Source: an uncultured delta proteobacterium
Lineage (GTDB): Bacteria > Myxococcota_A > Polyangia > Polyangiales > JADJMO01
Assembly: GCA_903923175.1 (NCBI GenBank)
Contig: CAIXWQ010000706.1
Span: 1 to 19,763, forward strand
Direction of reading: 5' to 3'
Length of the DNA: 19,763 bases
Part shown: positions 2,715-19,667 of the stretch, piece by piece
How positions within the stretch are numbered: position 1 is the stretch's first letter
Layout of the letters: each line of letters opens with the position of its first letter
The notes under the pieces: generated by a model
The model's database searches: none
Seen by the model: only the letters and a program-made list of their open reading frames with translations
What the model was told of the DNA's origin: nothing
Position numbers and translations under genes: made by a program

Positions 2715-3158
2715 GTGCGCGTCGGCGGAGGCGCGATGCTTCGACTGCGCAGATGCACGTTACTCGTCGCCGTATGTACGGCGATGGCGGCAGTGGGCTG
2801 CGGCGGCAGCGATTCGACCGTAGACGGCAGCGACACCGGGACCGGCGACGACGGCGGTGACGCCGGCGAGGCGGGCGATGACGCCGGCGAGGCGGGCAAT
2901 GACGCCGGCGACGACACCCTGACCGACTCGGGCGGTGGCGGTGACGCCGCCGACGCTCCGGGCGACGGCGGGCTCGACGCCGCGCCCGTCGTCAACGGTC
3001 TGCCGGGCCTGGCGCTCAGCGCCGGCGGCACCGTCTGCAAGAGCACCAACTACAAGATGATCGTGACGCTCGGCCAGAGCCCAGGCGGCAACGGCACGGG
3101 CAAGTCGACCAACTACCAACTTCGCGGCGGCGTCATCGGCGCCTCGCAGGCACCGTGA
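2715..3158 (+). CDS. Small secreted acidic Gly/Asp-rich lipoprotein with an in-frame tandem repeat
   Basis: GTG at 2715 sits 10 nt after GGGAGG (2699-2704). An alternative ATG at 2736 sits after GGAGG (2727-2731). The signal peptide with lipobox-like motif is [22 protein letters not shown]|GG. The body is D/G/A-rich (DAGEAGD repeats). The C-terminus carries a duplicated GKSTNY(K/Q) motif. The stop is 14 nt before the next gene's start. Confidence 0.7.
2859..2913 (+). repeat. In-frame 21-nt tandem repeat (2.6 copies) encoding DAGEAGD / DAGEAGN / DAGD
   Basis: gacgccggcgaggcgggcgat (2859-2879) is followed by gacgccggcgaggcgggcaat (2880-2900) and a partial third copy (2901-2913), read directly from the sequence. 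Confidence 0.8.
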
Positions 3159-3172
3159 GGGAGGCCGTGACC

Positions 3173-4526: not shown

Positions 4527-5042
4527 TCACCGCGGCGGGGGAACGAGGACGTCGAGCTTCACGACCTCCCCGTTCGCCCGCTTCGCGCTCACCGTGACCG
4601 TCTTCCCGGTGAGCGCGGGATCGCTGTTCATGACGATGAGGCCACCCTTGCCGTTCGGCATGACGGTGAGCGCCGGGTTGGTCACTTCGTAGCCCACGTA
4701 GTCGGGCGCGCTCGAGGACGCGGGCGCGCCCGTCGTTGCGACCGGAGCCACGGCAGCCCCCGCGGAGCCCGTCGACACCGCCGCCGGCGCGCGCAGGCGC
4801 AGCTCGGCAACCTCGGCGCGCAACGGCGCGATCTCGCGGCGGAGGTCGTCCTGCGCGCGCACGAGCTCCGCGCGCTCCGAGGCCCACGACGCGCTGCCTG
4901 GGGGCGCATTCGGGCGGAGCGCCGCGTAGATCGACACGATCAGCGCGAGGGCGGACACGACGAGCGGGGCGAAGCGAGCGCGATCGGTGGGAGCGGCCAA
5001 GGGCCCACCATACCGCACGCCGCCGAGTCGCCGAAAAGGCAC
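4527..5042 (-). CDS. Hypothetical single-pass membrane protein with a coiled-coil segment and a small C-terminal beta-domain
   Basis: The start is GTG at 5040-5042, or GTG at 5016-5018; neither has a clear SD. A TM helix (FAPLVVSALALIVSIYAAL) is followed by a coiled coil (ERAELVRAQDDLRREIAPLRAEVAELRL), an Ala/Ser/Thr linker, and a conserved-looking C-terminal domain (YVGYEVTNPALTVMPNGKGGLIVMNSDPALTGKTVTVSAKR). The opposite-strand alternative here is an Arg/Pro-rich low-complexity frame, which favours this ORF. Confidence 0.45.
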   Translation of the reverse strand: MPFRRLGGVRYGGPLAAPTDRARFAPLVVSALALIVSIYAALRPNAPPGSASWASERAELVRAQDDLRREIAPLRAEVAELRLRAPAAVSTGSAGAAVAPVATTGAPASSSAPDYVGYEVTNPALTVMPNGKGGLIVMNSDPALTGKTVTVSAKRANGEVVKLDVLVPPPR

Positions 5043-5101
5043 GTCGCGAGGGCGCCGCGCCGCGCTTGACCGCGCCGAGCGGGGCCGGCGACGCTGCGTG
5101 C

Positions 5102-7318
5102 GTGGCGCAAGGCGGGCCTCTCGCGCGAACGCTGGCGCTCTCGGCCGCGGTCGCCGTCTCGTGCGCCTCGTGCGCCTTCGGCTGTACCGCCGCGAGTCCT
5201 CCCGCCGCGCCCAGCTGCGCGGTCGACGAGCCCCTCGCCGCCGATGGCAGCTGCATTGCGCCGGGCGTCCCGCCTTCGCTGTGCGGCGACGGGTTCACGT
5301 CCGACGGCGCCGGCGGGTGCGCGCCGGTGCTCCTCGCCGAGCCGTGCGCCGCGGGGACGATGGCGGTCCCCGGCGAAGGCGCGTGCCACGCCGTCGGCGC
5401 GGTCGAGCCGCCCACGTGCCCGCGCGGAGCGCTCGCGAGCGTGGGCGAGTCGGCCTGTCACGAGGTCGCGCCGTGCGGCGCGGCGCCGTGGGGCACCATC
5501 CCGGTCGACGCCACCACGGTCTACGTCGACGCCGCCTACGGGGCGACCGACGGTGACGGCAGCGCGGCCAAGCCGTTTCGCACGATCGCCGAGGGGCTCG
5601 CGCGAGCGCCGTCGGGCGGCATCCTCGCCATCGCGGCCGGGCGGTACGTCGAGAGCGTCGCCCTTCAGGCGAAGCCGGTGAAGCTCTGGGGGCGCTGCCC
5701 GTCGATGGTCTCCGTCGAGGCGTCCGGCGCCGCGCCTGCGCTGGTGGTGCGCGGCGCGGCCTCGGCGGGCGCGGAGGCCCACCAGCTCGCGTTCAGCGGC
5801 CCTGGGCGCGGCGTCGCGGTCTCCCAGACCAGCGGCGTCGTGCTCGACCGCGTCTGGATCCACGACACCGGATCCGAGGGGCTCACCACCGGCGGCGAGG
5901 TGCTGCTCCGCGCGTCGCTCGTCGAGCGGACCGTCGGCGCGGGCGTGCACGTATCGGGCTCCGCGGTGACGATCGACGAAAGCGTCCTGCGTGACGTCCA
6001 GCCGGACGCGGCCGACGACTACGGTCACGGCGCGCTCGTCGACCAGGCCGGCTCGCTCGTCGTGACGGCGTCCGTGATCGAGCGCGACGTCGACGCCCTC
6101 GTCTCGGCGGAGGCGAGCGACGTGCTGGTGGACGGGAGCGTGCTGCGCGACGGGCTCGCGCACGCGGACGGCCGGCTCGGCGACGGGATCTCCGCCGTAT
6201 CGCTCGGCGGGCGCGCGTCGCACGTCACGCTGCGCGGCTCGACGCTCGCGCGCACGCGCCACGCCGGGATCTTCGCGATCGCGAGCGAGGTCGCCGTCGA
6301 GGGCTCGTTCGTGCACTCCACCCGGGGGACCGCGGACCAGCAGACCTACGGCGCGGGGCTCTTCGTCGTCGACGATCCGATCGCCGGCACACCCTCGCTG
6401 GCGAAGGTGAAGGGCTCGCTCGTGTCGGACAACCACTACGCCGGCATCGCCTGCGTCGGCAGCGTGCTCGACGTCGAGGGCTCGGTGGTGCGCGACGACC
6501 TCGCGCAGGAAATCGACGGAAGCTACGGCGTCGGGATCTACGCGCAGCAGGACGACGGCGTCTCGCCGCCCGCGCGCCCCGACGTGACCGTGCGCGGCTC
6601 GCTGCTCGAGCGCAACCAGGTGGCCGAGCTCGTGCTGCTGGCCGGCGACGGCGTCGTCGAGGCGTCGGTGCTGCGCGACACGCTCGCCGAGCAGCAGGGC
6701 GGGCTCGGCGAGGGGATCCTCGTCGGCGCCCAGGGAGCCCCCTCGACCCTCGCCGTTCGCGCGTGCGTGCTCAGCGGCAACCGCGCGGCGGCGATCGACG
6801 CCTACGCGGCCACGCTCGAGGTGACGGCGACCGTCGTGCGCGCGACGCTGCCGCGCGCCTCCGATCGGCTCTACGGCTACGGCATCTACGCGCAGGCCTC
6901 GCAGCTCACGCTCGGGGCGTCGCTCCTCGACGCGAACCACGCCGCGGGCGTGTTCCTGGACGGCGGCAGCGCGACCCTCGAGTCGACGGCGATCCGCGGC
7001 ACGCTCGGCAGCGACGTCGACGGCACGTTCGGCGACGGCCTCGCCGCGACCGGCGGCGCGACGGCGACCATCCGCCGCTCGCGCGTCGAGCGAAACGCGC
7101 GCGCCGGCATCTCGGCCTTCTCGTCGACGGTGACCCTCGACGGCGATGGCCTCGCCTGCAACGCCTTCGCGCTCGACGGCGAGGCGATCGGCGGCGCGCC
7201 CTACGCCTTCGAAGTCGCCTCTCCGTGCAGCTGCGCGTGCGGGAGCGAGGCCGCTCCGTGCCAGGTCTTGAGCAGCATGCTCACGCCCCCCACGCCGCTC
7301 CCGCCGCGGACGCACTGA
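5102..7318 (+). CDS. Large secreted right-handed parallel beta-helix repeat protein (pectate-lyase-like fold, DUF1565-type N-cap) with an N-terminal Cys-rich repeat region
   Basis: The most likely start is GTG at 5102. It gives the signal peptide M-AQGGPLARTLALSAAVAVSCASCAFGC. An in-frame TTG at 5066 is also possible. The region 5156-5495 has 13 Cys in evenly spaced C-x(9-12)-C modules (…SCAVDEPLAADGSCIAPGVPPSLCGDGFTSDGAGGCAPVLLAEPCAAG…). The beta-helix cap is DGDGSAAKPFRTIAEGLARAPSGGILAIAAGRYVE. More than 10 coils with a recurring GS(V/L)(L/V)RDxLA motif follow, and the C-terminus contains CSCACGSEAAPC. The long antisense ORF here is low-complexity. Confidence 0.8.
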   Translation: MAQGGPLARTLALSAAVAVSCASCAFGCTAASPPAAPSCAVDEPLAADGSCIAPGVPPSLCGDGFTSDGAGGCAPVLLAEPCAAGTMAVPGEGACHAVGAVEPPTCPRGALASVGESACHEVAPCGAAPWGTIPVDATTVYVDAAYGATDGDGSAAKPFRTIAEGLARAPSGGILAIAAGRYVESVALQAKPVKLWGRCPSMVSVEASGAAPALVVRGAASAGAEAHQLAFSGPGRGVAVSQTSGVVLDRVWIHDTGSEGLTTGGEVLLRASLVERTVGAGVHVSGSAVTIDESVLRDVQPDAADDYGHGALVDQAGSLVVTASVIERDVDALVSAEASDVLVDGSVLRDGLAHADGRLGDGISAVSLGGRASHVTLRGSTLARTRHAGIFAIASEVAVEGSFVHSTRGTADQQTYGAGLFVVDDPIAGTPSLAKVKGSLVSDNHYAGIACVGSVLDVEGSVVRDDLAQEIDGSYGVGIYAQQDDGVSPPARPDVTVRGSLLERNQVAELVLLAGDGVVEASVLRDTLAEQQGGLGEGILVGAQGAPSTLAVRACVLSGNRAAAIDAYAATLEVTATVVRATLPRASDRLYGYGIYAQASQLTLGASLLDANHAAGVFLDGGSATLESTAIRGTLGSDVDGTFGDGLAATGGATATIRRSRVERNARAGISAFSSTVTLDGDGLACNAFALDGEAIGGAPYAFEVASPCSCACGSEAAPCQVLSSMLTPPTPLPPRTH

Positions 7319-7490
7319 GCTGCGTCGCGCGGAGGCCGTTGGACCTCCCGCCGCCGCACCCGTTGCGCGACTGCGGCCTCCGTGCACGCTCGCCCCGCTC
7401 GCACCGAGCCGCCGAGCGCCGTGCTGCCGTCGCCGGCTGGCCCGCCGCGCGTGTCGCCCTCGTGGCTCGCAGCATGCAGCGATCTCGCGC

Positions 7491-8042
7491 ATGGCGCGCA
7501 CCGCTTGGACGCTCGAGAACCGCACGCAGCTCCCCGCTCGCATCGCCACCATCCTCGTGCCGGTCGACTTCTCGGCCGCGTCGAGGGCGGCGATGGACCA
7601 CGCCGTCGAGCTCGCGCGCGCCCACGAGGCGGCCATCGACGTCGTGCACGTCTGGGACGTCCCCTCGTACTCCGGCGCCGCGCTCGTGTTCGAGGCGAAC
7701 GAGGGGGGGCGCACCTCCGCGAGCCCCACGTTCGCGCAGTACATGCACGACCGCGCGACCTCGGAGCTCGAGGCGTTCCTCGCGTCGTGGGGCGAAGCGG
7801 GGCTCGACATCCGCGGGCGCGTGCTCGACGGCGAGCCGGCGCGCGTCCTGGTCGCGCTCATCCGCGACGAGCACTTCGACCTCTGCGTGATCGGCGAGCG
7901 CGACAAGGGGGCCCGCGAGATCATCCTCGGCAGCGTCGCCGACGCGGTGCTGCGCGAGGCGGACTGCCCCGTCGTCACCGTTCGCGCCGTGCCGGAGCCC
8001 CGCGCGCCCGAAGAGTCGGCCGAAGGGCCGCGCGCGCGCTGA
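7491..8042 (+). CDS. Universal stress protein (UspA family)
   Basis: ATG at 7491. It has the classic Usp Rossmann-like signature: ILVPVDFSAASRAAMDHAVELARAHEAAIDVVHV near the N-terminus and GSVADAVLREADCPVVTV at the C-terminus. The ORF is 183 aa. Confidence 0.85.
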   Translation: MARTAWTLENRTQLPARIATILVPVDFSAASRAAMDHAVELARAHEAAIDVVHVWDVPSYSGAALVFEANEGGRTSASPTFAQYMHDRATSELEAFLASWGEAGLDIRGRVLDGEPARVLVALIRDEHFDLCVIGERDKGAREIILGSVADAVLREADCPVVTVRAVPEPRAPEESAEGPRAR

Positions 8043-8047
8043 GCTGC

Positions 8048-8824
8048 TCAGCCGCCCATCGTCCCCGCGACGACCGCGATCGAGGCGAGCACGCTCGCGG
8101 CCACCAGCGACCAGCCGAGGCGCGTCAGCGCGCGTGGCCCGACCCGCGTGACCGCCATGACCACCGCGAACGCCGCGAAGGGCGCCAGCCCGAGCGCGAC
8201 GCCGAGGCGGACGTTGGCGCGGGTCGTGAGGTAGGCCGCCAGGACCGCGAGCGGCGCGGCCGCGCCGGCGATCCACGCGAGCGCGGCGCTGCCGTCGCGC
8301 TTGGATCGCGCGATCACGCCGCGCACCGAGGCGGTGACGAGGGTGAACCCCCCGGCGAAGACGACGAACGCGCCGATCGCGCGCGGCAGCTCGGCGCCGC
8401 CCGCCAGCGCCACCGGGACGAGCGCCGCGGCCAGCGTGATCGAGACGAGCACCTCGCCGAGCAGCGAGCGCTCCTTGCGCCGGAAGACCAGCACGAGGAC
8501 GAGCGTCCCGAGAGCGAACGCGGGGAGGCCGGCCAGCAGCGCGAGGCCGGGCGCCGTCGCGAAGCCCGCGGCGCCGAAAAGGCAAGCGATCGCCAGCGTC
8601 CGCATCAGCATGATGCGCGCGGCCGTTCCGTGCTCGCGCTTCGCCTTGGGCCCGCGGTGTCCGAGCTCGACGAGGAGCGGCTCGTGCGCGAGGAACGCAG
8701 CGACAGCCGCGGTCGCGCAGAACACGGCGGGGAGATGGAACCGACCGAGGACGAGGCCGGTGGCGAGCGGAACGGCGAGCTGCCCGTAGGCGCCGTGCTC
8801 GCGAGGAAGGAGCGGGTTGGCCAT
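8048..8824 (-). CDS. YwiC-like family integral membrane protein (about 8 TM helices)
   Basis: Start is ATG at 8822-8824 (MANPLLPREHGAYGQLAVPLATGLVLG…). The PREHGAYGQL N-terminal motif is characteristic of YwiC-like proteins. The rest of the protein is highly hydrophobic. The longer ORF extending to 8926 adds an Arg/Pro-rich extension and is less likely. It lies 55 nt downstream of the ATPase gene on the same strand, so an operon is likely. Confidence 0.65.
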   Translation of the reverse strand: MANPLLPREHGAYGQLAVPLATGLVLGRFHLPAVFCATAAVAAFLAHEPLLVELGHRGPKAKREHGTAARIMLMRTLAIACLFGAAGFATAPGLALLAGLPAFALGTLVLVLVFRRKERSLLGEVLVSITLAAALVPVALAGGAELPRAIGAFVVFAGGFTLVTASVRGVIARSKRDGSAALAWIAGAAAPLAVLAAYLTTRANVRLGVALGLAPFAAFAVVMAVTRVGPRALTRLGWSLVAASVLASIAVVAGTMGG

Positions 8825-8879
8825 GCGGTCGAAGTGCGGCCTCAGCAAGGCGTGGGCCCCGGCTAACCCCGCGAACTTC

Positions 8880-9569
8880 CTAACGGGGCTGGGGTATGGG
8901 CGTGCAGGGCGTGCGCGAATCCGCATCGACTGCAGCCTGGGCGAGGGCGATCTCGTCCGAGACGAGCTGCATCACCCGCGCCGCTTTCGCGATGAAATTC
9001 GCGGTGCTGGCGACGAAGAACCGCCGCGGGTGCTGGCGCCAGGCGACCTCGATGAGTCGATCGATCGCCGCCGCCTCCTCCGGGCTCTCGACGCGCAGCC
9101 CCACGCTCCGGTAGCCGTTCTGGACCGTCGGCACCTGCAGTTGGATCACCGCCGCGTAGCGCGCGAGCTCGGCCTGCTCCCCGCTGCCGACCGCGCGGAA
9201 GAAGTCGTCGGGCGCGTCGGGCCAGTACGCGAGGCCGTCGACGGTGCCGCGGTCGCAGAGGATCACGCGGGTCTGGTCGTCGTCGAGCGCCACGGTCTCG
9301 AGCTCGCGCTGCACGTAGTAGATGGCGCGCTGCGCGGCCGCGCGCGACCCGCGTGACGTGCGGCGCGGAAAGCCGCCGCCGAAGACGATGCTCGCCGACT
9401 CGGGGAGCACGACCACGTCGAGCGCGGCCGCGTGGCGCACGATCTCGAGGATGGCCGTCTTGCCTGCGCCAGGCCCTCCGGTGAGCACGACGATGCGCGG
9501 CTTGCGAGGCGCTGGGGTGGAGGGCTGGGGGTCCTTGGCTGCGTCGCCGGATGCTGGAGTGGGCAACAT
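8880..9569 (-). CDS. P-loop NTPase of the AAA_28 type (NadR-kinase-like ATP-binding protein)
   Basis: Start is ATG at 9567-9569 (MLPTPASGDAAKDPQPSTPAPRKPRIVVLTGGPGAGKTAILE…). It has a Walker A motif GGPGAGKT and a Walker B-like VILCDRG. The ORF is about 229 aa. Upstream in-frame Met codons would overlap the divergent gene at 9718, which has a strong RBS, so the shorter start is preferred. Confidence 0.7.
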   Translation of the reverse strand: MLPTPASGDAAKDPQPSTPAPRKPRIVVLTGGPGAGKTAILEIVRHAAALDVVVLPESASIVFGGGFPRRTSRGSRAAAQRAIYYVQRELETVALDDDQTRVILCDRGTVDGLAYWPDAPDDFFRAVGSGEQAELARYAAVIQLQVPTVQNGYRSVGLRVESPEEAAAIDRLIEVAWRQHPRRFFVASTANFIAKAARVMQLVSDEIALAQAAVDADSRTPCTPIPQPR

Positions 9570-9717
9570 GGACGCTGATCGGACGTGCAACAGCGGGGCC
9601 CTGCCTGCAACGAAATCGCCCTCTCGGCCGGGGTAGAGAGCGGAGATTGCGGTGAATTTGCCGTATCGGGGCATGGCTCGCGGCGTGCAGCGCCTCCGCG
9701 CGAGGAGGAACCGTCGC

Positions 9718-9966
9718 ATGGACACTGCCACTTGGAGGGACGAAGCCCGCAAGGCCATCGATCGCCTGCAGTCGGTGCGTGACGAGCTCCGCGTGCAAGC
9801 GCACCTCGCCGGGATGGACGCCAAGGACCGCTGGAAGAGCCTCGAGCCGCGCATCCAGGAGGTCACCGACCACCTCGCGCGCGAGGGGAGCGAAGGAGCG
9901 AGGAAGGCGTTTCAGGAAATCATGGACGAGCTGAAGACATTTCGGGCCTCGCTCGATCGTCACTGA
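9718..9966 (+). CDS. Small (82-aa) all-helical hypothetical protein
   Basis: ATG at 9718 follows a strong SD, GAGGAGG (9702-9708, 9-nt spacer). The protein is charged and coiled-coil-like (MDTATWRDEARKAIDRLQSVRDELRVQAHLAGMDAKDRWKSLEPRIQEVTDHLAREGSEGARKAFQEIMDELKTFRASLDRH). It has high GC3. Confidence 0.6.
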   Translation: MDTATWRDEARKAIDRLQSVRDELRVQAHLAGMDAKDRWKSLEPRIQEVTDHLAREGSEGARKAFQEIMDELKTFRASLDRH

Positions 9967-10095
9967 TCCGCGAGCCCGGACGCACGCGCGGAGGTCGCAC
10001 GGCGCGGCGCGCGATGCGGAGAGCGCGCGGGGGCGAGTCGAGCGGCGTGCGTGAAGGGGCGTCGATGCGTCGTCGTTCCGGAGCGTGCCTGCGGT

Positions 10096-10111
10096 CGCGC
10101 GCATGCGCGCG
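10096..10111 (+). promoter_or_regulatory. 16-nt perfect alternating-CG palindrome abutting the ribosome-binding site of the PAS-LuxR gene
   Basis: CGCGCGCATGCGCGCG (10096-10111) is perfectly self-complementary. It ends 1 nt before the GGAGGAGG SD (10113-10121) of the gene that starts at 10127. It could be an operator or an RNA hairpin. Confidence 0.3.
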
Positions 10112-10126
10112 CGGAGGAGGAGCCCG

Positions 10127-11227
10127 ATGAGTACGCATTCCACGGAGCTCACGTCGGGGCCGAGCTACGGGCGTGGGTCAGGCGACGCGGAGCCCCCGTC
10201 CGACGCAGGGGTCGGTCGCTCGGATCTGACCGAGCGTACAGCTCGTCGGCAGGAGGGGCGCACGGTACTGAAGCCGTTGCGAGAGGCGCGCGATGCACGT
10301 GACGCAGCGGGGGAGAAGGTCGCTCCGGACACCGTGAAAGCCGACTGGATGACGCTGGCGAGCCGCGCGATCGAGATGCTGGCGAAGCCCGCCGTCGTCG
10401 TCGACCGGAAGGGGGCCATTCTCCTCTTCAACCACGAGATGCAGCGCTTGCTCGGGCGCACCCGCGACGAGTCGCTCGACCAGCCGTGGTTCGACCTCTT
10501 CGTGCCGAAGGACGCCCAGGACGCGGCCAAGCACTGCTTCGAGCAGGCGCTGCGCGGCGCGCTGGCCGAGTGCGAGTGCAAGGCGGTCACCAAGAGCGGC
10601 GTCCGCCTCCGTCTGCGCCTCGACGTCTCTGCGATCGGCACCGGGCCGCAGGCCGCGCTGTTCCTCGCGGTGCGAGAGAGCGAGCGCGAGGAGACCGACG
10701 CCGACGCGCCGGTCGAGGGGACGCACTACGCGATCTCGACCGCACCGCACGAGTGGGGTGCGCTGCGGAGCCTGCGCACGCCCGAGGGCCCCGTCGCCGC
10801 GGCGCGCGGTCGCCCCTGCTACGAGTGGCTCGAGCAGCGCTCCGGGCCGTGCCCAGGCTGCCCCGTGCAGGCGCTCCGCGAAGGCGAGTCCGCCAGCATC
10901 GTGCTGCCGAGCCGCGAGGCGGAGCTCCCGCTCCGGCTCGTCTCTGCGCGCGCGGTCAAGGGCGCGGGCGCCGCCGTCGTCCGACGCGAGCTCGAGCCGA
11001 AGCTCATCGCCCAGATCGTCGAGGCGAAGCTGCTCGTGGTCGCGCGCGAGAAGCACCTCTCGCCGCGCGAACGCGACGTGCTGCGCTCGCTGCTGCGCGG
11101 CGACTCCTCGCAGGACATCGCGACGGCGCTCGGCATCTCGCCGCGCACGGTGAAGTTCCATCAGGCGAACCTGCTCCGGAAGCTCGGCGCCGACTCGCGG
11201 CTCGAGCTGGTTCGCTGGCTGCTGTAG
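10127..11227 (+). CDS. PAS-domain / LuxR-type (GerE) HTH transcriptional regulator (one-component; no receiver domain)
   Basis: ATG at 10127 follows GGAGGAGG (10113-10121). The PAS-like core is ASRAIEMLAKPAVVVDRKGAILLFNHEMQRLLGRTRDESLDQPWFDLFVP. The C-terminal LuxR HTH is REKHLSPRERDVLRSLLRGDSSQDIATALGISPRTVKFHQANLLRKLGADSRLELVRWLL. There is no Asp-containing REC domain. Confidence 0.85.
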   Translation: MSTHSTELTSGPSYGRGSGDAEPPSDAGVGRSDLTERTARRQEGRTVLKPLREARDARDAAGEKVAPDTVKADWMTLASRAIEMLAKPAVVVDRKGAILLFNHEMQRLLGRTRDESLDQPWFDLFVPKDAQDAAKHCFEQALRGALAECECKAVTKSGVRLRLRLDVSAIGTGPQAALFLAVRESEREETDADAPVEGTHYAISTAPHEWGALRSLRTPEGPVAAARGRPCYEWLEQRSGPCPGCPVQALREGESASIVLPSREAELPLRLVSARAVKGAGAAVVRRELEPKLIAQIVEAKLLVVAREKHLSPRERDVLRSLLRGDSSQDIATALGISPRTVKFHQANLLRKLGADSRLELVRWLL

Positions 11228-11299: not shown

Positions 11300-12535
11300 T
11301 CACGGGCGCTTCGCGCTCGGAAACCACAGCGTGAAGCGGGCGCCGTGCCCGGGCGACGTCTCGAGGCTCAGCCGGCCGCTCGAGCGCTGCACGAAGGCGT
11401 AGACCATCGCGAGGCCGAGCCCGGTGCCCTCTTCGCCCTTCGTCGTGAAGAAGGGCTCGAACACGCGCGCCTCGACGTCCGCCGGCATCCCCGGGCCGTC
11501 ATCGCTCACGTGAAGGCACGCGCCGCCCTCGACGGCGCCGGTCGTCACCTCGATCGTCCCGCCCTTCACGCCGAGGGCGTCGATGGCGTTGACGATCAGG
11601 TTCACGAGCGCGGCGACCCCGTCGCTCGCCCGCAGTCGCACGAGCGGCGGATCGCCGCGGCGCGCCACGACCGTCACGTGCGTGTCGTGCTTCATCCGCA
11701 GGCGCGGCTTGCAGATCTCGATCGCCTCCGCCGCGAGCTGGTCGAGGTCGACCAGATCCTGGTTGCCCGCGGGGGCCTGCCGGCTGAACGCGCGCAGGCG
11801 CTCGATGGTCTCGAGCCCGCGCCGCAACACGAGCTGCATGTCCGCGATCGACTGCTGGGCGTCGACCTCCTCCTTGGAGATCGCCCGCTTGAGGAACTGC
11901 AGGTGCAGCGAGAGCGGGTTCAGGATGTTCTTGAGGTCGTGCGAGATGCCCGCCGCCATCTCGCCGAGCGCCCGTAGCTTCTGCGTGCGCTCGAGCAGGT
12001 CGCGCGAGGCGCGGAGCTCGCGTCGCGAGCGGGTCAGCTCCGCCTCGAGCGCGGCTTGTGCCAGCGCAGTTCCACCGAGGTCCGCGAGCCCTTCGAGCAG
12101 CGCGTGGGCCTCCTCGTCGAGCTCCTGGTCGGCGCCGAGGATCACGATCAGCGTGCCGAAGAGATCGCCCCCCGAGACGAGCGGGAACGTTCGAGCCTGC
12201 GTGTCGGCGGTGCCGAGCGCGGCGATCACGCGCTCTTCGAGCTCGGGGTCGAAGGCGTCGACGTCGCCGAGCCGCGCTGCGAAGTCGGCGGGGAGCCCGT
12301 TCGAAGCGGCAAGCGCGACCCCACCGGTGGGCGTGACGGCGACGACGGCGGCGCCGCGTGCGTCGACGTGCGCCATCGCAGCTTCCGTGACGAGCGGCAG
12401 AATCCGCTCATTCGCGCCGCCGGTCGTCACTGCTCGGCTAAGCCGGACCAACGTCGCGACCGCGCCTCTGTCCGGATGACTCGAAGGAGGCGTCACTGAT
12501 CGCGCAGCATTCGCAAAGGGCGGGCTTGCGGTCAA
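11300..12535 (-). CDS. Cytoplasmic sensor histidine kinase (GAF - HisKA - HATPase_c)
   Basis: The first in-frame start is TTG at 12533-12535, preceded by an AAAGG-like SD. A GTG at 12493-12495 is an alternative. The N-terminal region is GAF-like. The H-box is EMAAGISHDLKNILNPL. The N/G boxes are LVNLIVNAIDA, VSDDGPGM and FEPFFTTKGEEGTGLGLAMV. There are no TM segments. Confidence 0.85.
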   Translation of the reverse strand: MTASPPFANAARSVTPPSSHPDRGAVATLVRLSRAVTTGGANERILPLVTEAAMAHVDARGAAVVAVTPTGGVALAASNGLPADFAARLGDVDAFDPELEERVIAALGTADTQARTFPLVSGGDLFGTLIVILGADQELDEEAHALLEGLADLGGTALAQAALEAELTRSRRELRASRDLLERTQKLRALGEMAAGISHDLKNILNPLSLHLQFLKRAISKEEVDAQQSIADMQLVLRRGLETIERLRAFSRQAPAGNQDLVDLDQLAAEAIEICKPRLRMKHDTHVTVVARRGDPPLVRLRASDGVAALVNLIVNAIDALGVKGGTIEVTTGAVEGGACLHVSDDGPGMPADVEARVFEPFFTTKGEEGTGLGLAMVYAFVQRSSGRLSLETSPGHGARFTLWFPSAKRP

Positions 12536-12590
12536 CCCCTGCCTTTACCCCCTATGCGTTCCTCGTTCCCGAGCGCCTGCGGGCGGGCTA

Positions 12591-13526
12591 ATGTCCGTGT
12601 CGATGGATGCGCGAGCAACGATGGCACGGCTCGGCTTCGACGAGCGCGAGCTCCAGAGTCGACGGGCGATCTTCGAGCTGCACGACGAGGACCTGCAGCG
12701 CCTCACCGCGATCCGCGCGATCGCGGAGCGCCACATGGCCGAAGTCGTGGACGGCTTCTACGCGCTCTTGCTCGGACACCCGGGCACGCGCCGCTTCCTG
12801 ACCGACGACGCCCAGGTCGCGCGGTTGAAGCGGACCCAGAGCGCGTACTTCCTGCAGCTCTTCGACGGCCGCTGCGATCTCCCCTACGTCGAGAACCGCA
12901 TCCGCGTCGGCGCGGTCCACGAGCGCATCGGGCTCGCGCCGAAGTGGTACATCGCGGCCTACCGGCGCTACCTCGCGCTGCTGCTCGAGCGCGTCGTCTT
13001 GGACATCCCCGATCGCGCCGAGGCGCTGGCGGCCTACCAGAGCCTCAAGAAGATCGTCGCCTTCGACATGTCGATCGCGATCGACACCTACATCGCGGCG
13101 AACCTCGAGTCGCTCGGGCGTCACCAGGCCGCGATCCGCGAGCTCTCGACCCCCGTCATCCGCGTGCACGAACGGCTCCTGCTGCTGCCGCTCGTCGGCG
13201 CCATCGACAGCCAGCGGGCGCAGCAGGTCATGGAGATGGTGCTGGTGCGCGTCATCGAGGAGAAGGCGCGCGCGATCATCATCGACATCGCCGGCGTGCC
13301 CGTCGTCGACACCAAGGTCGCCGATCACCTGCTCAAGACCACCGCCGCCGTGAAGTTGATCGGAGCGCAGACGATCTTGACCGGCATCAGCGCGCAAGTC
13401 GCGCGCACCATCGTGCAACTTGGCGTCGACATCTCCTCGATGCACACGCTCGCGCGCCTCTCCGAGGGCATCGAGCTGGGGCTCGAGCTCGTTGGCAAGA
13501 GAATCGCTCCGAAGGAGCCCTCGTGA
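12591..13526 (+). CDS. rsbR: RsbR-like stressosome sensor protein (N-terminal non-haem globin-type sensor domain + C-terminal STAS domain)
   Basis: ATG at 12591. The N-terminal 165 aa resemble the RsbR non-haem globin domain (RLTAIRAIAERHMAEVVDGFYALLLGHPGTRRFLTDDAQVARLKRTQSAYFLQLF…WYIAAYRRYLALL). The C-terminal STAS domain is PVIRVHERLLLLPLVGAIDSQRAQQVMEMVLVRVIEEKARAIIIDIAGVPVVDTKVADHLLKTTAAVKLIGAQTILTGISAQVARTIVQLGVD. The gene order with the next two genes is the canonical rsbR-rsbS-rsbT order. Confidence 0.85.
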   Translation: MSVSMDARATMARLGFDERELQSRRAIFELHDEDLQRLTAIRAIAERHMAEVVDGFYALLLGHPGTRRFLTDDAQVARLKRTQSAYFLQLFDGRCDLPYVENRIRVGAVHERIGLAPKWYIAAYRRYLALLLERVVLDIPDRAEALAAYQSLKKIVAFDMSIAIDTYIAANLESLGRHQAAIRELSTPVIRVHERLLLLPLVGAIDSQRAQQVMEMVLVRVIEEKARAIIIDIAGVPVVDTKVADHLLKTTAAVKLIGAQTILTGISAQVARTIVQLGVDISSMHTLARLSEGIELGLELVGKRIAPKEPS

Positions 13527-13891
13527 GCCGCAAGGGCCCGATCCCCATCCTGCGCGTCGGCAACGTGTTGCTGACGACCATCCACATCGACCTGCAGGAC
13601 ACGATCGCGGCCGCGTTCCAGGAGGACGTCCTCACCGAGATCGAGAAGACCGGCGCGCACGGCATCGTGGTCGACATCAGCGGCCTCGACGAGGTCGACA
13701 CCCACGTCGCGCGCATCCTCGCCGAGACGGGGGCGATGGCGCGGCTCATGGGCACCCGCGCGGTGCTCGTGGGGATGCGCCCCGAGGTCGCCGCGACGCT
13801 CGTGCGCATGGGCTACGCGATGGGCGCGATCGAGACGGCGCTGGACGTCGACGACGGCCTTCGCCTCCTCGGTGGAAGGCCGAAGGGCTGA
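13523..13891 (+). CDS. rsbS: RsbS-like single-STAS-domain stressosome scaffold protein
   Basis: GTG at 13523 overlaps the rsbR TGA in a GTGA overlap and follows AAGGAG (13512-13517). The 122-aa STAS protein is VSRKGPIPILRVGNVLLTTIHIDLQDTIAAAFQEDVLTEIEKTGAHGIVVDISGLDEVDTHVARILAETGAMARLMGTRAVLVGMRPEVAATLVRMGYAM… It corresponds to the C-terminal part of the longer ORF-track entry 12554..13891, whose N-terminal part is out-of-frame junk. Confidence 0.8.
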   Translation: MSRKGPIPILRVGNVLLTTIHIDLQDTIAAAFQEDVLTEIEKTGAHGIVVDISGLDEVDTHVARILAETGAMARLMGTRAVLVGMRPEVAATLVRMGYAMGAIETALDVDDGLRLLGGRPKG

Positions 13892-13898
13892 AGTGACC

Positions 13899-14330
13899 AT
13901 GGGCTCGCTGGCGTTCGAATCCCAGACGCTGTCGTCCGAGACGATGGCGATCGATCGCGAGGAGGACATCGTCCACGTGCGCAAGCGCGCGCGGATGCTG
14001 GCCCAGGCGCGCGGGTTCGACGCCTTCGCGTGCGCCGCGCTCACCACCGCGGCCTCGGAGCTCGCGCGCAACGTGTGGGTGCACGGCGGCGGCGGCCAGG
14101 CGACGCTCGAGGAGCTCTCCGACGGCAACCGCTTCGGCATCCGGATGGTCTTCCGCGATCAGGGCCCGGGGATCGCCGACCTCGAGCGCGCACTTCAGGG
14201 GGGCTACTCCACCGCGCGCTCGCTCGGCCTCGGGCTCTCCGGCACGCGGCGGCTCGTGGAGGACTTCGCCATCGACACGCGACCCGGTGAAGGGACGCGC
14301 GTCACGATCACCAAATGGACTCGTTTCTGA
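13899..14330 (+). CDS. rsbT: RsbT-like serine/threonine protein kinase (GHKL/anti-sigma-factor-kinase fold), the stressosome switch kinase
   Basis: ATG at 13899 follows GAAGGG (13882-13887). A GTG at 13893 is an alternative. The N-box is ASELARNVWVHG. The G-boxes are DQGPGI and SLGLGLSG. The size (about 143 aa) and its position after rsbS match RsbT. Confidence 0.85.
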   Translation: MGSLAFESQTLSSETMAIDREEDIVHVRKRARMLAQARGFDAFACAALTTAASELARNVWVHGGGGQATLEELSDGNRFGIRMVFRDQGPGIADLERALQGGYSTARSLGLGLSGTRRLVEDFAIDTRPGEGTRVTITKWTRF

Positions 14331-15343
14331 TCGAGCGGTGGGTCTCCCACCTCGATCGGCTGACGATCTACGACGAGGCCTCGGTCTCGGAAGCGCGGCA
14401 GCGCGCCCGGGCGGCGGCCGCCGCCGCGGGGATGTCCGCCGACGCGGCGGCGACGCTCGCGCTGATCGCGAGCGAGCTCGCCCACAACCAGCTACGCCAC
14501 GCGCGCGGCGGGCAGATCGCCGCGAGCGTCTTCGCCCGCGGCGACCGGCTCGGGGTCGAGATCGTCGCCGCCGATCGCGGCGGAGGGATCGCGGATCCGT
14601 CGGCGGCGATCGAGCACGGCGCCTCGACGGGCGGCGGCCTCGGCGCGGGGCTCGCGGGGGTGCTGAGGCTGGCCGACGAGGTCGATTTCGACATCCGCCT
14701 CGGCCAGGGGACTTGCGTCTGGGCCCGCAAGATCGAGGGCGCGAGCCACCGACGCGAGGTCGCCGTGCTCGGCCGCCCCGCCGACGGCGAGCGCGTCAGC
14801 GGCGACGACGCCTGCTTCGTGCGCGACGACGACACGCTCGTGCTCGCGCTCGCCGACGGCCTCGGGCACGGCCCCGACGCGAGCCTGGCGGCCCGCGCCG
14901 CGGTGGAGACGGTGCGCAACGCCCCCGCTCGCGCGCTCCCCGATCTGCTGCGCGAGGCAGGCGCCGCGCTCGTGCGGACGCGCGGCGCCGCGATGTCGAT
15001 CGTGCGCATCGACGAGCGGTTCGCCGAGCTGCGCCACGCGGGCGTCGGCAACGTCACGGCGCACGTGGTCTCCGCCGACTCGCAGCGCGCCTTCAGCGGC
15101 ATCTCGGCGGTGCTCGGCATGGAGCCGGCGCGCGCGCCGCTGCGTCGCGCTCGCACCGACGAGGATCACGCCCCCTTCGGCCCGTGGGACGTCGCGTTCC
15201 TGTTCACCGACGGCTTGACGACGCGCACGCGCCTGGAATCCGAGAGCGGCGCGCTGCGTCGCCATCCCGTCCTGATCGCCGACGCGCTGCTGAAGGCGTT
15301 CGGGCGCACGCACGACGACGCGACGGTCATCGTCGTCTCGTGA
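14315..15343 (+). CDS. Fusion protein: RsbT-paralogous GHKL Ser-kinase domain (residues about 1-150) + PP2C/SpoIIE-type (RsbX-like) phosphatase domain (about 152-342)
   Basis: ATG at 14315 lies 16 nt inside the rsbT 3' end. The N-terminal domain aligns motif-for-motif with the preceding RsbT (IYDEASVSEARQRARAAAAAAG… ASELAHNQLRHARGGQ, DRGGGIAD, STGGGLGAGLAG). The C-terminal PP2C motifs are LALADGLGHGPDAS, FLFTDGLT and HDDATVIVVS. Confidence 0.85.
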   Translation: MDSFLIERWVSHLDRLTIYDEASVSEARQRARAAAAAAGMSADAAATLALIASELAHNQLRHARGGQIAASVFARGDRLGVEIVAADRGGGIADPSAAIEHGASTGGGLGAGLAGVLRLADEVDFDIRLGQGTCVWARKIEGASHRREVAVLGRPADGERVSGDDACFVRDDDTLVLALADGLGHGPDASLAARAAVETVRNAPARALPDLLREAGAALVRTRGAAMSIVRIDERFAELRHAGVGNVTAHVVSADSQRAFSGISAVLGMEPARAPLRRARTDEDHAPFGPWDVAFLFTDGLTTRTRLESESGALRRHPVLIADALLKAFGRTHDDATVIVVS

Positions 15344-15571
15344 GCCTCGAACGCGGCCCTTCACGCGGTCGAAGCGCCGGAGCTCCCCGACGCGCCGCAA
15401 CGCCGATCCGACGCACCTGACGCGTCCGTACGCACCGGCTGCAGCTTCGCGTGCGCCCCTCACGCGCATCACGCTCCCTGCGCAGCGCGGCCGCCGCGCG
15501 ACGCGTGGCGCGCGCGTTGCTCCGTCCTCGGGGTGCGACCGCGCGGCTGCGGCCGAGCCGGAGGTGGACCG

Positions 15572-16516
15572 ATGTGGACAGGCCCGACCGAGCGCTGGCG
15601 CGCGATGCTCCAGAGGGAAGAGGAGCCCCGCGCCCTCACCATCGCCATGCAGGCCGTCCGTGACGCCGAGCACGGACCGCACAAGGACCCCGAGCGCCTC
15701 GCGGAGGCGCGCCTCGCGCTCGCCGAGTGCTTCCTCGGCGAGAGCCGCTACCAGGACGCGTTGACCGAGCTCGAGCACGCGCGCAAGGCGCTGCACGCCG
15801 CGCCCGTCGCCACCGTGCGAAGGCTCGCAGAGCTCGACGACCTCGAGGGGATCGCCCACGAGGCGCTGGGCAAGCCGTTCGAGGCCGAGACGCACTTCCT
15901 CGCGGCGCTGAAGGCGCGCGAGGCGGAGTGCGGTCGCGAGGACCCGGAGGTCGCGACCTCGCTCGAGAACCTCGCGCGGCTCTACGCCGACGGCACCTTC
16001 GAGGAGCGCCACGCCATCCCGCTCCTCGGCCGCGCGCTGCGCATCCTCGAGAAGGCGGGGCCGAGCTGCGATCACCGGCGCGTGCGCGTGCTGCACGATC
16101 TCGCCGTGCTGCAGCGCAACGCGGAGCACCTCGACGAGGCGCGCGATCTCCTCGAGGACGCGCTGCGCGTCCAGATCGATCTCGCCGGCCGCAACGACGC
16201 GTCGGTCGCGCCGCTGCTGCGCGATCTCGCGCTGATCTACGCCGAGAAGAAGGAGTGGATCACCGTCGAGGCGCTGCTGCGTCGAGCGCTCGTGATCATG
16301 GACACCCACCCCGCGCAGGAGGCCCTGCCGTACATCGAGGACCTCGCCGACGCCGAGCGCGAGATGGGCAAGGTCGACGAGGCGCTGGTGCTCTACCGGC
16401 ACGCCGCGCGGCTGTATCGCGCGGTGGGCGGCCAGGACGACATCGAGGCGGCCGAGATCGAGCAATTCGTCGACGACCTCGAGGAGCTGCGTCGCGCGCA
16501 CAAGACCGAGAGCTGA
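15572..16516 (+). CDS. Soluble TPR-repeat protein (TPR_12/kinesin-light-chain-like repeats)
   Basis: ATG at 15572 follows GGAGGTGG (15560-15567). The protein is 314 aa of repeated about 42-aa helical units (…ATSLENLARLYADGTFEERHAIPLLGRALRILEK…VAPLLRDLALIYAEKKEWITVEALLRRALVIM…). The 5' part of the ORF-track entry from 15533 lacks an RBS. Confidence 0.8.
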   Translation: MWTGPTERWRAMLQREEEPRALTIAMQAVRDAEHGPHKDPERLAEARLALAECFLGESRYQDALTELEHARKALHAAPVATVRRLAELDDLEGIAHEALGKPFEAETHFLAALKAREAECGREDPEVATSLENLARLYADGTFEERHAIPLLGRALRILEKAGPSCDHRRVRVLHDLAVLQRNAEHLDEARDLLEDALRVQIDLAGRNDASVAPLLRDLALIYAEKKEWITVEALLRRALVIMDTHPAQEALPYIEDLADAEREMGKVDEALVLYRHAARLYRAVGGQDDIEAAEIEQFVDDLEELRRAHKTES

Positions 16517-17612: not shown

Positions 17613-18173
17613 GTGATCGCCGTCTACCTCGCGGCCTTGGTCGTCGCGCTCGGCGTCGTCGGGGTGCAGCTGCTCGGCGGGGCGCACGGTCACGACGGCT
17701 CGGTCGGCGCGCACGACGTCTCCGCCGGCGCGCACGGCGACCACGATGCCCTCTCGACCGCCTCGCTCTTCCTCTCGACGCGGTTCTGGACGTTCGCGCT
17801 GCTGGCGCTCGGGCTGGTCGGCACGCTCCTCTCGCTCCTGCGGCTCGCCTCGCCTTGGGCCATCGTCGTGCTGGCGATCACCAGCGGCGTCGTCTCGGGG
17901 CTCTTCGCCGCGCTCGTGTTCCGCGCGCTCCGGCGGTCCGACCGGTGGAGCGGGGCCTCGCTGAACGAGGCGATCGGCACCACCGCGCGCGTGCTCGTCC
18001 CCTGCGCCAAGGGGCGGGTCGGCAAGGTGCGCGCGCTCGTGAAGGGGGCGACCGTCGACATGCTCGCCATGACCGACGCCGAGGAGATCGAGATCGGCGC
18101 CCACGTGCTCATCGCGGCGATCGACGGGGGCATCGCGAAGGTCGAGCGCGCGCCGCTGGAGCTCGAGCCGTAG
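17613..18173 (+). CDS. nfeD: NfeD-like (short form, YuaF-type) membrane protein with a C-terminal OB-fold and an unusual His-rich loop
   Basis: Start is GTG at 17613, the first start in frame, with no obvious SD. There are two or three TM helices (IAVYLAALVVALGVVGVQLL; FWTFALLALGLVGTLLSLL; WAIVVLAITSGVVSGLFAALVF). The C-terminal beta-barrel motif is GTTARVLVPCAKGRVGKVRALVKGATVDMLAMTDAEEIEIGAHVLIAAIDGGIAKVE. The His-rich insert is GAHGHDGSVGAHDVSAGAHGDHD. The gene lies immediately upstream of a flotillin gene, the canonical NfeD-SPFH pairing. Confidence 0.75.
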   Translation: MIAVYLAALVVALGVVGVQLLGGAHGHDGSVGAHDVSAGAHGDHDALSTASLFLSTRFWTFALLALGLVGTLLSLLRLASPWAIVVLAITSGVVSGLFAALVFRALRRSDRWSGASLNEAIGTTARVLVPCAKGRVGKVRALVKGATVDMLAMTDAEEIEIGAHVLIAAIDGGIAKVERAPLELEP

Positions 18174-18374
18174 CGGCGGCGCGTGCGCTCGCGCGGGGCG
18201 CGCGCACCGCCGCTCGGTCGCCATGCCCGGTGGCGGTAGCGCAGGGTGCAACGCTTGCGTCGCCGAGCGCGTCGATCGGCCTCGTTTTCCAGGCCGTTCC
18301 GCGCGTCGCGCCGCGTGTATCCTCGCCGCATGGTCAAGCCCACGTCCGATGGGATCCCCGATCTCGGGATCGAC

Positions 18375-19667
18375 ATGCAGACGGCGACGCTCCTGCTCGG
18401 CGGCGCCGTCGCCGTCGTCATCGCGTTCGCGCTCTTCGTGTGGTTGATGAACCGGTTCCTCTACGTGTGCCGGCCGAACGAAATCCTGATCTTCGCGGGG
18501 CGAAAGCACCGATTGCCGGACGGCACCGAGGTCGGCTTCAAGATCCTGCACGGCGGTCGTGGCATCCGCACGCCGCTGCTGGAGACGGTCTCGCGCATGG
18601 ACATGCGCCTGTTCCCCGTCGAGGTCGCCGTCGCGAGCGCGTACTCGAAGGGGGGCATCCCGCTCACCGTCAACGCGATCGCGAACGTGAAGATCGCGAG
18701 CGACCCGCTGCTGGTGCGCAACGCGGTCGAGCGCTTCCTCGGCACCAGCATGCAGCAGATCGCGGTGGTCGCGCAGCAGACGCTCGAGGGCGTGCTGCGC
18801 GAGGTCCTCTCGCAGCTCACGCCGGAGGAGGTGAACCAGGATCGCCTCAAGTTCGCGGAGAGCCTCGTGCTGAACGCGAAGGACGACTTCGACAAGCTCG
18901 GCCTCGAGCTCGACGTGCTCAAGGTGCAGCACGTCGCCGACGATCAGCAGTACCTGCAGAACCTCGGGCGCGCCCGCATCGCCGGCATGATCCGCGACGC
19001 GCAGAACGCCGAGAACCAGGCCAACCAGCGCATCGCCGAGGAGCAGGCCGCCGCGCGGATGCGCGCCGAGTCGGCGCAGAAACAGGCCGAGGCGATGGTG
19101 CTGCAGAAGAAGAACGGCGTGCGCGCCGAGCTCGCCCGCCTCGAGGCGCAGGCCAAGTCGATCGAGAACGAGGCGGAGGTCGCCTCGCAGACGGCGCGCT
19201 CGTTCGCCGAGCAGGATCTCCAGGGGCGCCGCGCCGAGCTCGAGAAGCTCCGCCTCGAGTGCGACGTCGTGCTGCCCGCAGAGGCGCGGCGCATGGCCGA
19301 GGAGGCGAAGGCGCGCGGCGCGGCGGCGCCGACCGTCGAGCAGGGCAAGGCGGCGGCGGAGGCGCTCACGATGGTCGCCGCCGAGTGGCAGGCGGCCGGC
19401 AAGGACGGGCGCGACCTCTACGTGCTCAACCAGCTCCGGAGCTTCGTCGAGTCGGCCATCACCCGCGTCGGACAGACCGAGATCAAGGAGCTGCAGCTGG
19501 TCGACGGCGGCGACGGCAAGGCGCTCGCCTCGCTGTTCGCGGCCTTCCCAAACGCGGTCGCCCGCGTGATGGAGGCGACCGGCGACGCGATCGGCGTCGA
19601 CATCGACGCGCTCATCGGATCCTCGCTCTCGAAGAGCGCCAAGAACGCCAAGAACGAGGTGCGGTGA
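18375..19667 (+). CDS. Flotillin-like SPFH/Band-7 domain protein (FloT/YuaG type) with C-terminal EA-rich coiled coil
   Basis: ATG at 18375 gives MQTATLLLGGAVAVVIAFALFVWLMNRFLYVCRPNEILIFAG, the typical flotillin N-terminal membrane hairpin followed by the PNE…G motif. The SPFH core is GIPLTVNAIANVKIASDPLLVRNAVERFLG. A long Ala/Glu/Gln-rich coiled coil follows (AEEQAAARMRAESAQKQAEAMVLQKK…). Upstream Met/GTG codons in the ORF-track version (from 18246) add an Arg-rich tail with no RBS. Confidence 0.85.
   Translation: MQTATLLLGGAVAVVIAFALFVWLMNRFLYVCRPNEILIFAGRKHRLPDGTEVGFKILHGGRGIRTPLLETVSRMDMRLFPVEVAVASAYSKGGIPLTVNAIANVKIASDPLLVRNAVERFLGTSMQQIAVVAQQTLEGVLREVLSQLTPEEVNQDRLKFAESLVLNAKDDFDKLGLELDVLKVQHVADDQQYLQNLGRARIAGMIRDAQNAENQANQRIAEEQAAARMRAESAQKQAEAMVLQKKNGVRAELARLEAQAKSIENEAEVASQTARSFAEQDLQGRRAELEKLRLECDVVLPAEARRMAEEAKARGAAAPTVEQGKAAAEALTMVAAEWQAAGKDGRDLYVLNQLRSFVESAITRVGQTEIKELQLVDGGDGKALASLFAAFPNAVARVMEATGDAIGVDIDALIGSSLSKSAKNAKNEVR

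Follow-up and report, generated by a model that had tools for sequence, protein, structure and literature searches.

The window analysed here is a stretch of 19,763 nucleotides (19.8 kb, G+C ~74%) on contig CAIXWQ010000706.1, from the assembly GCA_903923175.1 of an uncultured delta proteobacterium of the Myxococcota. At positions 12591-15343 of its forward strand, Pfam searches and a reading of the gene junctions define four closely packed genes: rsbR, rsbS, rsbT and a gene in which a kinase-like domain related to RsbT is fused to a PP2C phosphatase. The rsbR-like gene (12591..13526) encodes a sensor of 311 amino acids (aa) in which Protoglobin (aa 18-171, E 1.4e-40) precedes a STAS domain (aa 188-280, E 9e-16). 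The rsbS-like gene (13523..13891) starts with GTG and encodes a STAS-only scaffold protein of 122 aa (E 2.6e-11), and the rsbT-like gene (13899..14330) encodes a GHKL serine kinase of 143 aa when read from the ATG at 13899 (HATPase_c_2, E 2.3e-9), an in-frame GTG at 13872 being an alternative start. The fourth gene (14315..15343) encodes the 342-aa fusion protein, whose two-part nature is supported by Pfam, full-length homologues and an AlphaFold2 model. Its first domain (aa 1-139, 14315..14731; Pfam and BLASTP) is a HATPase_c_2 of the RsbT/RsbW/SpoIIAB type paralogous to RsbT, and its second (aa 149-342, 14759..15340) is a compact RsbX-type PP2C according to sequence and fold matches to the PDB entries 3zt9 and 3w40.

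The genes follow each other tightly. The stop codon of rsbR and the GTG of rsbS overlap in the tetranucleotide GTGA (13523-13526), with a GGAG 6 nt 5' of the GTG; rsbS ends at 13891, leaving a 7-nt gap before the rsbT ATG; and the ATG of the fusion gene at 14315 overlaps the end of rsbT, whose stop codon closes at 14330, by 16 nt. A promoter and terminator scan of 12300-15700 was uninformative in this 74% GC sequence. When the module proteins were compared by phmmer with all six-frame open reading frames (ORFs) of the window, no other STAS, RsbT-like or PP2C gene was found, and the major ORFs scanned with Pfam contained no RsbU_N, RsbV, RsbW or sigma-factor domain. A first-pass annotation of this DNA had proposed a stressosome-type rsbR-rsbS-rsbT operon closed by a fusion gene and lacking rsbU, and our analysis agrees with it on each of these points.

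Among solved proteins, the window RsbR is closest to its counterpart in the stressosome of Vibrio vulnificus (7o0i, E 9e-47 for aa 26-305), followed by the STAS domains of Listeria and Bacillus RsbR and by the globin-coupled sensors HemAT and GsGCS. Residues 1-180 (12591-13130) form a globin-coupled sensor of the haem type, as opposed to the non-haem globin of Bacillus RsbR, and the histidine of the motif GAVHERIGL aligns with the corresponding histidine of the Vibrio protein. The input signal of RsbR is probably O2 or another diatomic gas, because the best solved match is the O2-sensing RsbR of V. vulnificus and this histidine is aligned between the two.

The phosphorylation sites of the core proteins can also be recognized. 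In Bacillus subtilis, RsbT phosphorylates T171 and T205 of RsbRA and S59 of RsbS. In the window RsbR, T241 (VVDT) and T273 (ARTIV) align with threonine residues of the Listeria/Bacillus and V. vulnificus proteins, and across related loci position 241 is Thr or Ser in 75 of 75 sequences and position 273 is Thr in 74 of 75. The acceptor position of RsbS, residue 60, is Ser in 72 of 76 aligned sequences and Thr in the remaining four, the window having Thr. The N-box (SELARN), G1 (DQGPG) and G2 (GLGLS) motifs of RsbT agree with the consensus of 80 RsbT orthologues. A search of the PDB for an RsbT structure returned no RsbT chain and matched SpoIIAB only, at E 0.005, and NCBIfam holds no curated RsbT model. 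Judged by gene order, domain content and phospho-acceptor residues, the module is a stressosome module of the RsbR-RsbS-RsbT type. Stressosomes are ~1.8 MDa pseudo-icosahedral complexes of RsbR and RsbS that sequester RsbT, and the similarity (9e-47) of RsbR to the V. vulnificus RsbR of the solved complex suggests that the window proteins may assemble in this way.

The N-terminal domain of the fusion protein (hereafter the N-domain) matches HATPase_c_2 at aa 21-139 with an E value of 1.7e-12 and 47.9 bits against a curated cut-off of 27.4, placing it inside the RsbT/RsbW/SpoIIAB kinase family. With the window RsbT it shares 39% identity along 142 aa (BLASTP E 4e-25), and it has no PDB sequence match to SpoIIAB at E<0.01, so that 'RsbT paralogue' is a fair label for it. 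The first-pass annotation had described it as a second RsbT-like domain of the GHKL type whose N, G1 and G2 boxes can be aligned with those of RsbT, and these boxes are indeed strictly kept: among 81 fusion proteins, E54 and N58 of the N-box, D87 and G91 of G1, and G110 and G112 of G2 are 100% conserved, and G89 is conserved at 99%. RsbT orthologues are on average 52% identical to one another and fusion N-domains 40%, whereas the mean between the two classes is 28%, and a neighbour-joining tree mostly separates them. In sequence terms, the N-domain thus appears to be an ancient paralogue of RsbT that forms a class of its own, and its ATP-binding and catalytic site is conserved.

The near-invariance of the motif residues despite a mean identity of ~40% points to selection on ATP binding or catalysis. 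This bears on the idea that the N-domain is a degenerate pseudokinase scaffold and the fusion functionally a plain RsbX. A single-domain RsbX does suffice in Bacillus, Moorella and Vibrio, which speaks for this idea, but the invariance of E54, N58, D87, G91, G110 and G112 across proteins that have otherwise diverged so far makes it quite improbable. The N-box itself, which lies within aa 50-62 of the fusion, differs between classes. RsbT proteins have SELARN with a near-invariant Arg, whereas the fusion class has (T/S)EAxTN, with H57 in the window, and in this respect resembles the SEAVTN of SpoIIAB. Such a difference might mark another binding partner.

The C-terminal part of the fusion matches SpoIIE/PP2C at aa 171-341 (Pfam, E 3.4e-13), and its sequence matches in the PDB are limited to Moorella thermoacetica MtX (3zt9, E 1.6e-12), which is the RsbX homologue in that organism's stressosome, and to B. 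subtilis RsbX (3w40, E 5e-9). The metal-binding motifs are D181GLGHG, F297TDGL, which contains the metal ligand D299, and D334DAT; their integrity and the RsbX-like character of the domain had already been proposed from the sequence and are borne out here. In 81 aligned sequences the residues G163-D164, D181GLGHGP, R223-G224, G245-N246, D299-G300 and D334-D335 are invariant, and the metal ligands D164, D181, D299, D334 and D335 accordingly reach 100%. The GN motif is a signature of the RsbX-like group II PP2Cs (PMC4524716). We also considered whether G216 could signal an inactive enzyme, since 98% of the cross-phylum set has His at this position; the position is, however, variable (H/D/G/N) in a Myxococcota-rich set, and for this reason we do not take it as evidence of inactivity.

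An AlphaFold2 model of the fusion, built on a 66-sequence alignment, has a mean predicted local distance difference test score (pLDDT) of 91.9 and a predicted template-modelling (TM) score of 0.91 and shows one compact body. The GHKL domain extends to about residue 139 and is joined to the PP2C domain, which starts at 149, by ~10 residues of coil; a long crossing helix such as RsbU-type phosphatases have is absent. Only two segments are modelled with low confidence, the ATP-lid (101-110) and a clade-specific insertion (272-280). Foldseek placed 3zt9 (TM 0.89) and 3w40 (TM 0.81) as the top two PDB entries, and among solved proteins it found none with the two-domain layout of the fusion. No receiver domain (REC) was detected in the protein (no Response_reg match in Pfam). 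On both sequence and predicted fold, then, the phosphatase is of the RsbX/MtX type and not of the RsbU, RsbP or SpoIIE type, compact (~190 aa) and with an intact metal site. Unlike RsbX it is not a single-domain protein, a HATPase_c_2 domain of ~140 aa preceding the PP2C in frame, and the two domains are predicted to pack rigidly as one body.

The insertion mentioned above contains the six residues ARAPLR (aa 272-277, 15128-15145), which are predicted to be disordered, with a pLDDT below 50. It is absent from 95-99% of the cross-phylum homologues and is common only to the closest relatives (P0002 and P0004).

The fusion belongs to a large and ancient family. A word-indexed protein search with the fusion as query returned 452 proteins, and the best 120 of these, which were inspected, are ~316-351 aa long, cover 93-100% of the query and nearly all contain both Pfam domains. 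A HMMER scan of 1.84 billion cluster representatives, with clusters defined at 50% identity, gave 526 clusters at E<=1e-30, the top 150 being nearly all full-length matches of ~340 aa. These numbers dispose of a concern attached to the original description, namely that a second rsbT and an rsbX had been joined by a frameshift or mis-assembly near 14750. Hundreds of independent ~340-aa homologues from isolates, metagenomes and complete genomes carry both domains in one frame, which excludes such an artefact; the window gene shows no stop or frame change, and its model is a compact two-domain fold. We regard the probability that the fusion is an assembly or sequencing error as negligible.

We collected genomic loci with the fusion as query, keeping one genome per species, and studied the best 80 of at least 211, so that the frequencies given below are not a census. 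The loci were translated in six frames and searched with the window proteins, with flanks of ~6 kb where the contig allowed. The order RsbR-RsbS-RsbT-fusion on one strand was found in 78 of these 80 loci, from at least 10 phyla. The two exceptions are a contig that begins inside the fusion (L022) and a locus in which the R-S-T genes lie ~3.5 kb away on the opposite strand (L018). Carriers include Myxococcota (Nannocystis, Polyangiales, Cystobacter, Archangium, Anaeromyxobacter), Burkholderiales (Massilia, Herbaspirillum, Cupriavidus, Paraburkholderia, Variovorax, Ramlibacter), Alphaproteobacteria (Methylobacterium, Bradyrhizobium, Rhodoplanes) and Gammaproteobacteria (Pseudomonas, Cellvibrio, Luteibacter), as well as Acidobacteriota, Gemmatimonadota, Bacteroidota, Planctomycetota, Nitrospirota, Chloroflexota, Streptomyces (Actinomycetota), a Heliomicrobium metagenome-assembled genome (MAG) and Deinococcota. 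Within these flanks no second PP2C was found in the 80 loci. RsbT is always a separate gene in them, which makes the fusion an addition to RsbT and not a substitute for it. Moreover, when loci are compared in pairs, the distances obtained for RsbS, for RsbT, for the N-domain and for the PP2C domain correlate with one another (r 0.61-0.78), so that the module has been inherited as a unit.

The same gene order is annotated in complete records of Pendulispora brunnea, of a Paraburkholderia plasmid and of plasmid MP1 of Deinococcus radiodurans R1 (DR_RS15570-15595). RefSeq names members of the family 'ATP-binding SpoIIE family protein phosphatase', as in Paraburkholderia sp. D15 (WP_348638455.1), and labels the D. 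radiodurans R1 protein (WP_010883998.1, DR_RS15585) 'anti-sigma regulatory factor'. These Paraburkholderia and D. radiodurans proteins have the same two Pfam domains, are 333-351 aa long, occupy the same place after the STAS-STAS-kinase genes and are 30-36% identical to the window fusion over 83% of its length. In view of 526 clusters, a RefSeq product name and a member in D. radiodurans R1, which has long served as a reference genome, the first-pass suggestion that the architecture is undescribed is not supported. As a sequence feature it is ordinary: the fused RsbX is a common, databased and unstudied variant, not a new invention.

A further gene accompanies the module in many lineages. Of the 80 loci, 52 have a fifth gene behind the fusion, for a hybrid histidine kinase composed of an RsbT-like HATPase_c_2 domain, a coiled coil, HisKA and HATPase_c, and usually a REC domain; examples lie at L011:7006-8853, L083:5906-7639 (D. 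radiodurans DR_RS15590) and L082:5866-7536. Such modules contain three paralogous RsbT-like domains, one in free RsbT, one in the fusion and one in the histidine kinase. The three classes are distinct paralogues, with mean identities of 40-52% within and 24-33% between classes. The kinase-fused class is closer to RsbT (33% identity, N-box SE(I/L)ARN with the near-invariant Arg), and its ATP motifs are conserved at 85-96%, slightly less strictly. The Paraburkholderia and D. radiodurans loci have this fifth gene, whereas the window and its nearest Myxococcota relatives lack it.

The multiplicity of RsbT-like domains suggests one alternative role for the N-domain. It could be a receptor for free RsbT, heterodimerization switching the PP2C on, so that the N-domain would play the part of RsbU_N in an RsbT-triggered feedback; in other lineages RsbT would pair likewise with the N-terminal domain of the downstream hybrid histidine kinase. 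SpoIIAB-type GHKL anti-sigma kinases do dimerize, being homodimers, and the three domains per module, together with the lack of RsbU_N among the window ORFs scanned, fit this scheme. It would also offer a route from RsbT to downstream kinases without RsbU_N, a step that Heinz et al. (PMC9237108) leave unexplained. A pure docking function, however, would have no need of the strictly conserved catalytic Glu and Asn and of the G1 and G2 boxes, and the AlphaFold2 model shows no dimerizing helical linker of the RsbU type. On balance we consider an RsbT receptor unlikely.

We favour a different account, in which the module is a Gram-negative-type RsbR-RsbS-RsbT-RsbX (RSTX) stressosome and the fusion a reset phosphatase equivalent to RsbX that is docked, and possibly regulated or made bifunctional, through its RsbT-like domain; to this combined reading we assign a probability of roughly 0.55. 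Its two parts are not equally secure. That the fusion is the RsbX equivalent of a widespread fused family is very probable, as it is the sole PP2C of the module and its closest relatives by sequence and fold are RsbX and MtX. The docking or bifunctional mechanism is more tentative, and we would put it at slightly less than even odds.

Under this RsbX-equivalent reading, the fusion would dephosphorylate RsbS-P and RsbR-P and thereby re-arm the stressosome. Its RsbT-like domain would act as an ATP-dependent STAS-binding module through which the phosphatase is held to the surface of RsbR/RsbS, at or beside the site of RsbT. If it binds STAS domains as RsbT does, it would bring the phosphatase onto its substrate and at the same time compete with RsbT. 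The N-domain probably also phosphorylates STAS residues, in which case kinase and phosphatase together would fix the level of phosphorylation that the complex has at steady state, in the way that SypE and HsbR control their STAS partners. As the protein has no REC switch, the balance may be set by the conformation of the stressosome, through haem ligation in RsbR, and/or by the ATP/ADP ratio. In B. subtilis, the sigB operon ends with rsbX, and feedback operates via sigma-B-dependent transcription of this gene. Since RSTX modules have no sigma-B, an additional domain that controls the enzyme post-translationally or targets it would be a plausible substitute.

With regard to output, the window offers little downstream of the fusion, where the next gene encodes a TPR_12 protein (15533-16516, Pfam) and no obvious output protein is encoded. 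Upstream, in divergent orientation, lies an orphan histidine kinase gene (11300..12535, - strand) with HisKA and HATPase_c domains (Pfam) and a GAF-like N-terminus, GAF_2 scoring below threshold. Its start codon and that of rsbR are ~55 bp apart. Full-length orthologues occupy the same divergent position in Pendulispora brunnea (L081), Nannocystis (L001) and a Polyangiales MAG (L002), those of L001 and L002 with E values of 1e-94 to 1e-112. Its conserved synteny makes this kinase the leading candidate for an output partner of the module in the window clade, and the output would probably run through it and not through RsbU.

The question of output is also where a sequestering role for the N-domain has to be weighed. 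As in RsbW or HsbR/CrsR, the domain could hold a non-STAS target, for example a sigma factor or the adjacent histidine kinase, which unphosphorylated STAS domains of the stressosome would release; the fused PP2C would regenerate that antagonist, and the fusion would be an output device and not just a reset enzyme. The N-box (T/S)EAxTN, which resembles SpoIIAB/RsbW more than RsbT, and the missing output protein downstream are compatible with this, and the kinase domains of HsbR and CrsR bind RpoS (PMC6482189). Against it, neither the window nor the conserved module contains a sigma factor gene, the N-domain is far nearer to RsbT than to SpoIIAB in the searches described above, and most related loci already have a dedicated output kinase. 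Sequestration thus appears improbable, although less so than a pseudokinase scaffold.

The reading of the fusion as a docked reset phosphatase has its own weak points. We found neither a published description of the fusion nor a functional or biochemical study of any member of the fused family in the literature, although mention in comparative surveys is possible. That the N-domain would bind STAS domains is argued from its homology to RsbT, and its N-box is without the near-invariant Arg of RsbT, so its partner could differ. Opposing kinase and phosphatase activities on one substrate, with no obvious switch domain, would amount to a futile cycle unless they are regulated. The link to the histidine kinase, finally, is drawn from synteny in four genomes.

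The wider surroundings of the module can be described briefly. The divergent histidine kinase gene is adjoined by a PAS-LuxR(GerE) regulator gene (10085-11227, +), which is not an obvious cognate response regulator because it is without a receiver domain. Further upstream are genes for a universal stress protein (7491-8042, +), a YwiC-like membrane protein (8048-8926, -) and an AAA_28/zeta-toxin-like ATPase (8880-9866, -), possibly a stress-related neighbourhood upstream of the signalling genes. They are preceded by an ORF with collagen triple-helix repeats (3155-4519, +; Pfam Collagen, E 7e-18) and an 860-aa right-handed beta-helix ORF (4736-7318, +), a combination not usual in bacterial genomes. 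No family match was obtained for a long antisense ORF (4940-7978, -), which, given the high GC content of this DNA, is probably spurious. At the other end of the window, an NfeD-like gene (17613-18173, +) and an SPFH/Band 7 gene (18246-19667, +) form a classic NfeD-stomatin pair, unrelated to the stressosome operon.

The recurrence of the RsbT-like GHKL domain in these modules raises a broader possibility. It may be a reusable 'stressosome adaptor' that occurs free, on the reset phosphatase and, in most lineages, on the output kinase, a proposal that we consider speculative and on present evidence rather doubtful, if somewhat less so than an RsbT receptor. If it were true, effectors would use the RsbT-like domains that they carry to dock directly on RsbR/RsbS, phosphorylate it and leave it, or else would pair with free RsbT, and this would replace the relay from RsbT to RsbU_N known from Bacillus and explain stressosome signalling without RsbU and sigma-B. 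The fused RsbX would then be a self-targeting, nucleotide-gated kinase/phosphatase. For signal relay and reset of stressosomes outside the Firmicutes, extra RsbT-like domains would offer a concrete and testable wiring principle. The window itself adds one member, from an uncultured myxococcotal bacterium, to a family of hundreds; its value is that of a pointer to an understudied but very common design, in which a module can have as many as three RsbT-like domains and which bears on stressosome signalling without RsbU.

Among stand-alone enzymes, B. subtilis RsbX (3w40) and M. thermoacetica MtX (3zt9) resemble the fusion phosphatase in having a compact fold of ~190 aa, a GN motif and the same metal ligands but, unlike it, have no N-terminal domain. 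The closest characterized system as a whole is the minimal RsbR-RsbS-RsbT-RsbX stressosome of V. vulnificus (PMC9237108; 7o0i). Both it and the window module have a haem-globin RsbR, a STAS-only RsbS, RsbT and an RsbX-type PP2C directly after rsbT, both lack sigB, rsbU, rsbV and rsbW, and both have a histidine kinase beside the module, divergent and upstream in the window, downstream in V. vulnificus. The main difference concerns the phosphatase, which in the window carries the extra ~140-aa RsbT-like ATP-binding domain and in V. vulnificus is single-domain. In this regard, Heinz et al. (2022, PMC9237108) call the RsbX of globin-coupled RSTX modules a 'single domain PP2C', and as the published knockout reaches nucleotide 577 of VvrsbX, the Vibrio protein is apparently ~200 aa long (PMC9237108). 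Globin-coupled modules with a fused RsbX nevertheless exist, in the window, in Pendulispora and in three further loci with full-length RsbR matches (L016, L070 and L073). The Vibrio work found that RsbX interacts with RsbS; an interaction of RsbT with an effector was not shown, and RsbU_N is absent from most downstream proteins (PMC9237108).

Proteins that combine a STAS kinase with the opposing PP2C are likewise known, and the first-pass suggestion that such a combination implies a new control logic is not supported, as the principle is experimentally established for SypE (PMC3610818) and for HsbR/CrsR (PMC6482189). Vibrio fischeri SypE, with the layout kinase-REC-PP2C, exerts opposing activities on the STAS protein SypA, and its N-box Asn is essential (PMC3610818). 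Like the fusion it carries a serine kinase domain at its N-terminus and a PP2C at its C-terminus; in SypE, however, a central receiver selects the kinase or the phosphatase mode, and SypE works with a single STAS protein that is soluble, whereas the fusion has neither a REC nor a linker and is tied to a stressosome. HsbR of Pseudomonas aeruginosa and CrsR of Shewanella oneidensis, with the layout REC-PP2C-kinase, act on HsbA and CrsA (PMC6482189). These two proteins and Mycobacterium tuberculosis Rv1364c (PDB 3ke6) resemble the fusion in uniting a PP2C and an RsbW-like kinase that control the phosphorylation of a STAS partner, but differ from it in their reverse domain order, their extra REC or PAS/STAS domains, their sequestration of sigma factors and the lack of a stressosome link. 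Compared with SypE, HsbR/CrsR and Rv1364c, the window fusion is thus set apart by the absence of a receiver or any other switch domain, by the predicted rigid packing of its two domains and by its linkage to a stressosome.

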